This document shows positions 38,458 to 41,562 of a DNA stretch of 64,000 nucleotides, in pieces; position 1 is the stretch's first letter, and each line of letters opens with the position of its first letter. The position numbers and the translations under genes are program-made. The notes under the pieces are model-generated. The model was not told the origin of the DNA and did no database searches. It saw only the letters and a list, made by a program, of their open reading frames with translations. Source of the DNA: an uncultured Candidatus Rokubacteria bacterium (lineage in GTDB: Bacteria; Methylomirabilota; Methylomirabilia; Rokubacteriales; DASRDR01); contig CAWDVE010000013.1 of the NCBI GenBank assembly GCA_963805625.1, positions 224,001-288,000 of the forward strand. The letters are read 5' to 3'.

Positions 38458-38853
38458 TCAGACGCCGGGCGCCGAGACCGCGACGACCATCGCGGGCGGC
38501 CGCCGAGAGACCGGACGCTCGCGAATCACCAGAACCATCAGCGTGGCGGCGAACGCGACCAGCGCCGCGCCCAGCGAGCCGACGCCGAGGAGAATGCCGA
38601 AGCACGCCAGGACCACGCGAGGGCCCCACCGATCGGCGAGCCGACCGACGATCGGCCCCCTGGCCCCGTTGAAGAGAAACGACAGCGAGGCCACGAGGGA
38701 GAGCGCGGTCCGGTCCCAGCCGAACTTCGTCTCCATCGGCTTGATGAAGACGCCGAAGGCGCTTCGCACCCAGGAGGCGGCCAGGAGCGCGAGCGCGGTG
38801 CCTCCGATGATGACCCACGCGTAGTGCACGCGACCGGCGCCCCGCGTCGTCAT
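38458..38853 (-). pseudogene. Internally deleted MFS transporter (131 aa)
   Basis: First three MFS helices (HYAWVI, FGVFIKPM, GRLADRWGPR) are joined directly to a terminal-like helix and tail. Confidence 0.65.
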
Positions 38854-39815
38854 CGGCTCCACTCCCGGAGCCAGGCCGTCTTCGACCCTCGGTCGTGCCG
38901 CCTCATCAGCGCGACGACCTCCTCGCGCGTGGGCATGGCATCCACCGCGCCCCGGCGCGTGCACGTCAGGCCTCCCGTCGCGCTGGCGACGAGGAGCGCG
39001 TCCTCGATGGGCGCCCCGGCGGCCAGGGAGGCCGCGAGCGCGCCGCTGAAGGCGTCGCCGGCGCCCACCGTGTCGATCGCCTCGACCGGGAAGGCCGGCA
39101 CCCGGACGGTTCCGCCCGCCCCGACGGCGATCGCTCCCGCCTCGCCGAGCGTCACGACCACGGTGGACACTCCGCGGGCGACGAGCGCGCGACCCGCGGC
39201 CTCCGCGTCGGCCGGGCTCCGGACCTCGCGATCCGTGAGCAGCCCGGCCTCGATCTCGTTGGGCGTGAGGTAGTCTACCAGCGCCAGCAGATCGGCAGGA
39301 AGCGGAAGAACGCGTGCCGGCGCGGGATTGAGCATCGTCCGCTTCCCGAGACGCCGCGCCTCGCCGAGCGCCCAGCGCACCGTGTCGATCGGCGTCTCGA
39401 GCTGCAGAAGCACGACGTCGGCGCTCCGGAGGAGATCCACGTGGCTTCGGGCCCGATCGGGCGTGAGCAGGTGGTTCGCCCCCGGCGCGACCGCGATCTG
39501 GTTGCGCCCCTCCGGGTCGACCGCGATGAGCGCGACGCCCGTGGGCGCCTCGGTCGTGCGCCCGATCGGTCCGGGCGGAAGGCGAGCCTCCGCCAGGGCC
39601 GATGCGAGGCGGTCTCCCATCGGATCGGATCCGAGCAGGGTGACGAACGCCACGTCAACCCCGAGGCGGCGGGCCGCCACCGCCTGGTTCGCGCCCTTCC
39701 CTCCGGGCGACGTAACCAGGGTGCCGCCCGACACCGTCTCCCCGACACCCGGGAGCCGCGGGACGGTTACCGTGAAGTCGAGGTTGGAGCTTCCGATCAC
39801 GCAGACGGTGGCCAC
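38850..39815 (-). CDS. rbsK: Ribokinase
   Basis: GSSNLD, PGGKGANQAVAA, LQLE, TPNEIEA, DTVGAGDAF; GTG after GGAGGT. Confidence 0.95.
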   Translation of the reverse strand: MATVCVIGSSNLDFTVTVPRLPGVGETVSGGTLVTSPGGKGANQAVAARRLGVDVAFVTLLGSDPMGDRLASALAEARLPPGPIGRTTEAPTGVALIAVDPEGRNQIAVAPGANHLLTPDRARSHVDLLRSADVVLLQLETPIDTVRWALGEARRLGKRTMLNPAPARVLPLPADLLALVDYLTPNEIEAGLLTDREVRSPADAEAAGRALVARGVSTVVVTLGEAGAIAVGAGGTVRVPAFPVEAIDTVGAGDAFSGALAASLAAGAPIEDALLVASATGGLTCTRRGAVDAMPTREEVVALMRRHDRGSKTAWLREWSR

Positions 39816-40069
39816 GACACCTCCCCCTGCTGGGCGAGCGACAGGACATTGAACGGCATACAGTGCGGGTGGCGCGGCCTGGACCCTCCGCGCACCCAGC
39901 ATCGCTCCGTTGCGTCGTCCTCCCATGATCTCGGCCCGGAGACGGCTGGGGCACCCGGCCACCCATGCTCCTGGCGTCTCGCGCCACCCCGATTGACGCC
40001 CGAGCAGCGGCGTCTGATATCATCGAGACGGCTCGGGACCGGACGACGGGCCGGAAAGGAGAAACAAGG

Positions 40070-40300
40070 ATGAACATCCAGATCACCTACTGCACCGAAT
40101 GAGACTACTACCCACAGGCCTCCAGTTTGCAGGCCGCCATCAAGAAGGAATTCGGAGTCACCGCTAGCCTCCAGGGCGGACACGCCGGGGTGTTCGACGT
40201 GACGCTCGACGGCAAGCGTATCTACTCGAAGGACGAGACCTACCGCTTCCCCACGAACGAGGAGGTCTTCGCCGGCATCCGAGCGCATCAGAAGGCCTAA
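40070..40300 (+). CDS. Rdx-family (SelW/SelT/SelH) selenoprotein, 76 aa, in-frame UGA at 40100-40102
   Basis: MNIQITYCTE-U-DYYPQASSLQAAIKKEFG...GVFDVTLDGKRIYSK...RFP shows CxxU plus G-x-F-(D/E)-V and SK...RFP Rdx motifs. AGGAG RBS and a downstream hairpin are present. Confidence 0.9.
40117..40135 (+). promoter_or_regulatory. Candidate bacterial SECIS hairpin
   Basis: GGCCT-CCA-GTT-TGC-AGGCC stem-loop. The apical loop starts with G about 22 nt after the UGA. Confidence 0.6.
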
Positions 40301-41562
40301 CGGCCAGCCTGCCACTCACGCTCGAGACCCTCGCGGAATCGAGGGTGAGCGATGCGGGTGAGTTCGCGGGCGCGCTGGCCGACGCTCAGGCCCCGCAGCT
40401 CGGCGCGTCCGAACTCGGTCACGACGCAGTCGACGAGGTGGCGCGGCGTCGTGACCGGCGTCCCGGCCGCGAGTTGGGTCACGATCCGCGAGACCTCCCC
40501 GCGCCGTCCGGTTGACGGCAGCGCGATCACCGACCGGTTCCCGCCGAGGGCCGCTCCCGCCACGAAGTCGAACTGGCCCCCGATCCCCGCCACCTGGCGT
40601 GCGCCGAGCGCCTCTGCATTCACCTGCCCCGTCAGATCGAGCTCGATCGCCGAGTTGATCGAGACGAATCGCTCGAGGGCGGCCACCGCCCGCGGATCGT
40701 GGATCGTCGTCGAGGGCTCCATGTACACGCGAGGGTTCTCGTGGACCCAGCGGAACAGCGGTTCGGTGCCCATGATCTCGCCGAGGTCGAGACACCCCGG
40801 ATGGCGGCGATTCCGCGCCCCGGTGATGACGCCGCGCTCCAGGAGCGGCAGCATGGCGTCGAACAGCGCCGAATGGACGCCGAGGTCCCGGTGGCCGCCC
40901 AGCCCCGAGACGATCGCCTCGGGCGTCGCGCCGATGCCCACCTGGATGGTCGCGCCGTCGGGCACGATCTCGGAAACGTGGGCGGCGATCCGCCGCTCCA
41001 CCTCCCCAATCGAGGGCGATGCGTATGGGACCAGCGGACGGTCGGTCTCGACCCAGGCTCCGACCCGGTCGAGGGCGATCGTGCTGTCCCCCAGGGTCCT
41101 CGGCATCCGCTGGTTGACCTCGGCGATCACGAACGGCGCCGTGCGCGCCACCGGCAGCAGGTAGCTCGTCGACACGCCGAGGGAGAGCCGGCCCGCGCCG
41201 TCGGGCGGCGCCGTCTGCAACAGGACCGCGTCGGCCGCCCAGGGCCCCGACGGCCCGAACGCCCACGGGGCGTCGAAGTAGCGGAGTGGGACGAACTCCG
41301 CCTGGTCCCGTGCAAGAGCGTCGCGGAGGGCGGGCATCGCGTGGAAGGTCACCCAGCGGAGGCGCCCATGGTGCTCCGGGGCGCAGAACGGATGCCCGCC
41401 CAGGTGGAGACCGCCCATGAGCGTCAGCGGCCGGAGGCGCTCCGCTTGACGCAAGATCTCGTCGATCAGCGGCGTCGGCTCCCCGCAGCCGGGTGGAACC
41501 AGGACACGCATGCCCGGACGCAGGCGCCCAATGGCCTCCTCGACGGTGACGGAGCCGGCCAC
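40297..41562 (-). CDS. Acetyl-CoA hydrolase/transferase (4-hydroxybutyrate CoA-transferase-like)
   Basis: IAEVNQRMPRT, DGATIQVGIG, INSAIELDLTGQVNAE, GGQFDF, VVTEFGRAELRG. Confidence 0.92.
   Translation of the reverse strand: MAGSVTVEEAIGRLRPGMRVLVPPGCGEPTPLIDEILRQAERLRPLTLMGGLHLGGHPFCAPEHHGRLRWVTFHAMPALRDALARDQAEFVPLRYFDAPWAFGPSGPWAADAVLLQTAPPDGAGRLSLGVSTSYLLPVARTAPFVIAEVNQRMPRTLGDSTIALDRVGAWVETDRPLVPYASPSIGEVERRIAAHVSEIVPDGATIQVGIGATPEAIVSGLGGHRDLGVHSALFDAMLPLLERGVITGARNRRHPGCLDLGEIMGTEPLFRWVHENPRVYMEPSTTIHDPRAVAALERFVSINSAIELDLTGQVNAEALGARQVAGIGGQFDFVAGAALGGNRSVIALPSTGRRGEVSRIVTQLAAGTPVTTPRHLVDCVVTEFGRAELRGLSVGQRARELTRIAHPRFREGLEREWQAGR

Follow-up and report, generated by a model that had tools for sequence, protein, structure and literature searches.

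The gene at positions 40070..40300 (forward strand) of the window, the whole 64,000-nucleotide stretch of DNA that was analysed, is highly likely to encode a 76-residue protein of the SelW/Rdx family in which a conserved in-frame UGA most likely specifies selenocysteine (Sec), with a predicted role of the resulting CxxU centre as a small thiol-disulfide redox catalyst. The gene is absent from the standard list of open reading frames (ORFs), in agreement with an earlier note on this DNA, which described it as missed by the ORF track and proposed that the organism decodes Sec.

The Rdx gene and its predicted protein

All elements of the reading frame named in the earlier note are present as it described them. 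A ribosome-binding site, AGGAG (40057..40061), lies 8 nt upstream of the ATG at 40070, and the frame then runs through YCTE to the TGA. The C8-T-E-U11 motif occupies 40091..40102, with the predicted Sec codon at 40100-40102, and is followed by 65 sense codons (40103-40297) that contain the GVFDV, IYSK and RFP motifs and by a TAA stop (40298-40300).

The Rdx profile search and the residue check at position 11 that had been proposed both gave results that agree with this assignment. The read-through product matches the Pfam family PF10262 with 62.5 bits (cut-off 22.6, E 4e-17, model positions 1-73 of 74) and TIGR02174 with 53.8 bits (cut-off 34.2); the score against the SelTWH_Campy equivalog NF041051, 75.7 bits, is below its cut-off of 88. 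In four alignments, Cys8 and the TGA at codon 11 align with the CxxC of the solved structures 2oka, 3dex, 2fa8 and 2ljk, and position 11 is Cys in the solved homologues and TGA in the relatives.

An AlphaFold2 single-sequence model, in which U was folded as C, has a pLDDT of 85.8 and adopts a reduced thioredoxin-like fold with the order strand, helix, three strands, helix. The C8-T-E-U11 motif follows the first predicted strand (residues 3-8). The ten best Foldseek hits are bacterial SelW-related structures with TM scores of 0.80-0.85, and mouse SelW follows at 0.67. PDB entries 2fa8, 2oka, 2ojl, 3dex, 2obk and 2p0g share the fold (TM 0.80-0.85, 20-29% identity) and the position of the motif. 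These Cys-type bacterial Rdx proteins differ from the present one in carrying CxxC rather than CxxU, without recoding, and in their longer chains (103-107 residues where sequence matches were listed). The fold is also shared with mouse SelW (PDB 2npb, TM 0.67) and with human MIEN1/C17orf37 (PDB 2ljk, TM 0.74); the alignment places a CxxC at the motif position of MIEN1, and mouse SelW is a CxxU protein. Both of these proteins are eukaryotic, and the SECIS of SelW is a different element that resides in the 3' UTR, as stated in the available text of PMC13188914.

The fold and the motif, together with the chemistry of CxxU proteins, suggest how the protein would work. The folded chain would expose C8-x-x-U11 where helix 1 begins, and there Sec11 may attack a target disulfide or an oxidised thiol and Cys8 would resolve the resulting selenenylsulfide; regeneration would presumably be carried out by reductants of the thioredoxin or glutaredoxin type.

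Public gene calls start the protein at a TTG, codon 20, and the resulting alternative, in which the real product is a 57-residue protein and the UGA a true stop, is highly improbable. In its favour, the top 17 of 53 protein matches are forms of 55-57 residues that begin at codon 20, and the N-terminus is covered by only three of the 53. In the 30 orthologous loci that were fetched, however, codon 20 is TTG in 20, CTG in nine and CTC in one, and a Shine-Dalgarno-like 4-mer precedes codon 1 in all 30 and codon 20 in none. The short form would also be devoid of strand 1 and of the redox motif, residues 1-19 match the remainder in conservation, and addition of the N-terminal part raises the PF10262 score from the 39.8 bits obtained with the 65 residues after the TGA (35.4 bits against TIGR02174) to 62.5 bits.

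The sequence upstream of the gene contains the promoter-like elements that had been pointed out, a -35-like hexamer TTGACG (39993..39998) and an extended -10-like element of the form TG-n-TATCAT (TGATATCAT, 40015..40023), with a spacing of 19 nt. A consensus promoter scanner reported no site because its rule requires a spacing of 16-18 nt. The -10 hexamer is conserved beyond chance: of the 29 loci whose upstream DNA is long enough, every one has a hexamer of the TAnnAT type 20-65 nt ahead of the start, and none of 29 control windows has it; this pattern was picked after the sequences had been viewed. The TG extension is found in 19 of those 29 loci, and the TTGAC hexamer is visible in some relatives only. 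The element at 40015..40023 is likely the gene's own promoter.

Both neighbours are encoded on the opposite strand. The convergent neighbour (40297..41562, minus strand) belongs to the acetyl-CoA hydrolase/CoA-transferase family (PF13336), and its stop codon overlaps that of the Rdx gene; the divergent neighbour (38850..39962, minus strand, with the ORF taken from the first possible start) is a ribokinase (TIGR02152, 305.6 bits, cut-off 299.65). Across the 30 loci the CoA-transferase-family gene is the downstream neighbour in 29, and the gene on the 5' side differs among relatives. Because of its strand, the CoA-transferase-family gene is not co-transcribed with the Rdx gene, and the neighbourhood, with both genes on the opposite strand, offers no functional lead. 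The retention of the -10 hexamer and the orientation of the neighbours indicate that the Rdx gene is likely monocistronic and transcribed from a promoter of its own; this arrangement suggests that the protein has a housekeeping function in redox chemistry. One RNA run yielded a contig over 40202-40456 and another a contig over 40210-40344, contigs of this kind being unable to show strand or expression; in two RNA runs, contigs of relatives match just the hairpin stretch of about 30 nt.

Conservation of the in-frame UGA and of the downstream hairpin

The TGA at codon 11 is present in all 30 fetched orthologous loci, which are 55-97% identical, as is Cys8. In a set of 41 genomes (this one and 40 relatives), 37 were matched, and all 37 strong matches, from 36 genomes, hold one TGA. 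A GTDB scan gave the TGA in 21 of 21 loci, from genomes partly shared with the 30-locus set. Titled records at 79-97% identity are Rokubacteria or Methylomirabilota, apart from one titled just "uncultured bacterium", a placement that extends to the organism of the window. In the phylum as a whole, Rdx was found in 85 of 121 genomes; it occurs in 81 of 86 genomes of the order's two main families and in three of 34 elsewhere. Among the matches listed with E values of 1e-10 to 1e-15, each has one TGA, with the exception of one 30-position fragment at a contig end.

This distribution leaves next to no probability for a nonsense mutation or a sequencing error in a CxxC gene. In favour of such an explanation, stop-free Rdx matches do occur in part of the phylum's genomes and form a separate, higher-scoring group; the same TGA in 30 of 30 loci, with a frozen hairpin downstream, nevertheless refutes the explanation by conservation.

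Two further observations concern the spread of the family. In at least four other genomes, weak second Rdx matches begin at model positions 13-16 in open frames of 62-68 codons, and these are possibly further UGA-containing paralogues. A record titled Candidatus Nitrosocosmicus sp. (DASRWT010000018.1) contains a Rokubacteria-type copy of the gene with the same hairpin, which probably reflects a labelling or binning issue.

The stem-loop with a G-initiated apical loop that the earlier note placed about 22 nt after the UGA is found where it was reported. The hairpin (40117..40135, forward strand) consists of a 5-bp lower stem, a 1x1 internal loop, a 2-bp upper stem and a three-nucleotide loop of the form G-U-Y at 40125-40127, here G-U-U. 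It starts its loop 22 nt after the UGA and has a folding energy of -8.5 kcal/mol, with pair probabilities of 0.95-1.0 in the lower stem and 0.82 and 0.54 in the upper. The bacterial SECIS (bSECIS) consensus given in the available text of PMC13188914 specifies a loop of 3-9 nt, a stem of 4-16 bp, a G in the first two loop positions, a spacing of 16-37 nt and an energy of -7.5 kcal/mol or lower. The hairpin agrees with it in every respect (loop of 3 nt, stem of 7 bp, G first, 22 nt, -8.5 kcal/mol), a result that is weak on its own; a loose version of the consensus did not discriminate, as 196 of the 308 TGA sites screened conformed to it and the majority of these look like ordinary stops. The stability of the hairpin also does not exceed that of shuffled sequence in any of five windows (z -0.29 to +1.19).

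The support for the hairpin as a putative SECIS comes instead from silent sites, which are conserved beyond chance. The codons are frozen as GCC for Ala17 (30/30), TCC for Ser18 (30/30), AGT for Ser19 (28/28) and GCC for Ala22 (27/27), and AGT makes up 3.6% of Ser codons genome-wide; for the invariant residues Pro15, Gly37, Gly40, Val44, Thr57 and Pro61, the commonest codon reaches just 43-63%. In an alignment of 36 sequences (31 distinct) drawn from 51 loci, with duplicates and the two most divergent loci (L106 and L107) left out, the hairpin pairs can form in 96.8% of the cells, compared with 16-52% in slid controls. Covariation is thin, with one compensatory change from G-C to A-U in two sequences. 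The relatives are not independent, and these conservation counts are not to be taken as probabilities. In three relatives (L049, L052 and L056), Ala22 is replaced by Glu and the hairpin forms in another register, with its loop enlarged.

The RNAalifold consensus favours another hairpin, without the loop G, in which 40115-40119 pair with 40125-40129. This alternative is pairable in 99.4% of the cells, with no compensatory change. In the present sequence its energy is -2.1 kcal/mol compared with -8.5 kcal/mol, a fold weaker by 6.4 kcal/mol, and it is the less probable of the two in 33 of the 36 rows; in the remaining three, neither of the listed pairs is formed. It was rejected as the main fold on account of its weakness, of the missing compensatory change and of the frozen codons 18 and 22, which it leaves unexplained. 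The fixed U of the loop would likewise not be accounted for, since AGC would strengthen the alternative fold. A more ambitious proposal, which we regard as unlikely, takes Rdx to be a core Sec-only redox carrier of Rokubacteria and the near-frozen 21-nt SECIS stretch to be a two-state element; the alternative hairpin, stronger with CTG at codon 20, would bury the G-U loop that SelB needs and would in this way tune Sec insertion.

Selenocysteine machinery and other selenoprotein candidates

The absence of selA, selB and selC from the genome had been named as the finding that would speak against a selenoprotein, and all three genes were found, selB as a frameshifted copy. The selA (576 bits) and selD (395 bits) matches are above cut-off, and selD has an in-frame TGA of its own. 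The tRNA-Sec (76.9 bits) is above cut-off as well, carries a TCA anticodon and is the only tRNA with this anticodon among the 63 called. A single cluster on contig C21 (223591-228224, minus strand) groups selC, two unrelated-looking ORFs, selA and selB; selD is located on C10, and the Rdx gene on C13. The first codon of selB appears to be GTG. The proposal that the organism decodes Sec is supported by this inventory, in which selB is present and frameshifted in the assembly. The genome corresponds to the bacterial SelA/SelB/SelC/SelD system with an intragenic SECIS, with all four components and a hairpin that fits the published consensus, and departs from it in the frameshift of the assembled selB. 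By the established bacterial pathway, SelB would bind the hairpin loop and place Sec-tRNA(Sec) at the UGA before release factor 2.

The selB gene, 3' of selA, is split into two frames by a one-base deletion at C21:224982, within a C7-G5 run. The deletion could signify that the gene is a selenoprotein gene of the lineage whereas this strain truly lost SelB by a recent frameshift, so that translation stops at the UGA. We consider this very unlikely. In a comparison with the closest relative over 122 kb, with 53 isolated indels, the deletion is the sole one to disrupt a frame just in this genome, compared with 13 that do so just in the relative; the comparison gives no indication of a high assembly error rate in this genome and, to that extent, fits a true loss. 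Conversely, the break falls in a homopolymeric run, the missing base is present in the 98%-identical relative, and selB matches are above cut-off in 14 of 14 same-genus genomes, two of them partial. Of four DNA runs, which may stem from samples other than the source, three gave a contig bridging the site, all with the extra base, and the fourth had no coverage; one bridging short-read contig is otherwise identical to selB over 143 nt. About 36 TGA-containing genes, selD among them, have been kept, and the assembly has several frameshifts elsewhere, in a formate-dehydrogenase-like gene on C11. Judged from these sequence comparisons, the selB deletion is most likely an assembly error.

It is extremely unlikely that a reassigned code or a suppressor tRNA inserts a different amino acid (Trp, Cys or Gly) at the UGA. 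At position 11, two database proteins from small contigs do have W and a third has L. Against this reading, TGA is the main stop codon and terminates 1347 of the 2050 long coding-like ORFs, release factor 2 (RF2) is present above cut-off, the sole TCA-anticodon tRNA of the 63 is tRNA-Sec, and position 11 aligns with Cys in solved homologues. With UGA as the main stop and RF2 present, the sequence data indicate that UGA is not reassigned in this genome.

Further candidates were sought in the same genome, with 40 TGA sites hand-picked from screens. A Pfam domain extends across the TGA in 32, and NCBIfam, applied to five, added three; five candidates (L142, L147, L150, L151 and L152) have no domain across the TGA. 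One site, L141 at C1:7168 (forward strand), lies in a glycosyl hydrolase 20 domain that is not redox-like and was left out of the count; its TGA is probably a nonsense change or an error. The remainder gives about 36 likely selenoprotein genes (35, minus the glycosyl hydrolase, plus SelD and the Rdx gene), a count that is neither exhaustive nor strict, as two of the 40 were conservation-tested, one looks frameshifted and the assembly contamination is 6.3%. The set contains many AhpC/Prx- and TlpA-like proteins, four UGSC proteins, four rhodaneses and two CMD proteins, together with MoeB, DsrE, GrdA, GrdB, a PrdB-like protein and a CUAEP radical SAM protein.

Two other TGA-containing genes were observed. 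At C14:196684-198021 (forward strand), a class I flavoprotein disulfide reductase, similar to lipoamide dehydrogenase and MerA, has a CxxxxU active site and scores below all NCBIfam cut-offs shown. All 20 loci examined have the TGA and, after it, an invariant hairpin whose loop reads G-G-U-C; in one of them (L169), both positions are TGA. The protein was not found in Table 1 of PMC13188914 or in the available text of PMC12013277; the supplements of the surveys may list the family. At C19:55211-55942 (forward strand), an MBL-fold, persulfide-dioxygenase-like protein has a TGA at codon 20; the residue is U in 17 and Cys in two of the 19 loci covering the site, with the hairpin conserved in the U forms. 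This protein, too, was not found in Table 1 of PMC13188914, and the survey supplements may list its family.

The assembly shows some irregularities. The formate-dehydrogenase-like gene at C11:74900-77200 is broken by several frameshifts and has Cys at the visible active-site motif. C5 has a near-copy of the adjoining C11 sequence and also the best molybdopterin match, which is intact there, and the C11 region probably represents a duplicate that was poorly polished. The TGA matches of the molybdopterin gene on C11 were left out of the count, given the frameshift-ridden region and the Cys at the visible motif. An Arg-Ser-Ser tRNA cluster was called twice, at C15:2-348 and C21:395236-395581, which is consistent with duplicated sequence in the assembly.

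Relation to known SelW-like selenoproteins

Table 1 of PMC13188914 includes the SelW-like CxxU selenoproteins, which are also found in cultured bacteria (PMC1794560, available text) and, in the available texts of the surveys, are the most abundant selenoprotein family of the Sargasso Sea (PMC1088965, which also describes their mis-annotation) and of the GOS samples (PMC2398784). The family was catalogued by 2005, and the gene described here belongs to it. The present gene resembles the known bacterial SelW-like genes in its CxxU near the N-terminus, in its in-gene hairpin with a loop G after the UGA and in its habitual mis-annotation. It differs from them in origin: the available survey texts report the family as most abundant in marine samples, whereas this gene represents a soil/sediment branch from Rokubacteria. 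It also stands alone, unlike the family members in ten GOS reads that lie beside a peroxiredoxin gene (PMC2398784, available text). No paper that treats this gene emerged from a literature search on selenocysteine and selenoproteins in Rokubacteria; survey supplements may list the protein.

Rich use of selenoproteins by Methylomirabilota is already in print, with 63 predicted selenoprotein genes in one genome of the phylum according to the available text of a 2026 review (PMC13188914). The present gene adds a soil branch to the SelW-like family and is near-universal in its order (81/86 genomes of the two main families). Public collections hold its product almost only as the 57-residue fragment without the active site, an annotation that calls for correction, and the gene provides a compact, well-conserved test case for the bacterial SECIS.
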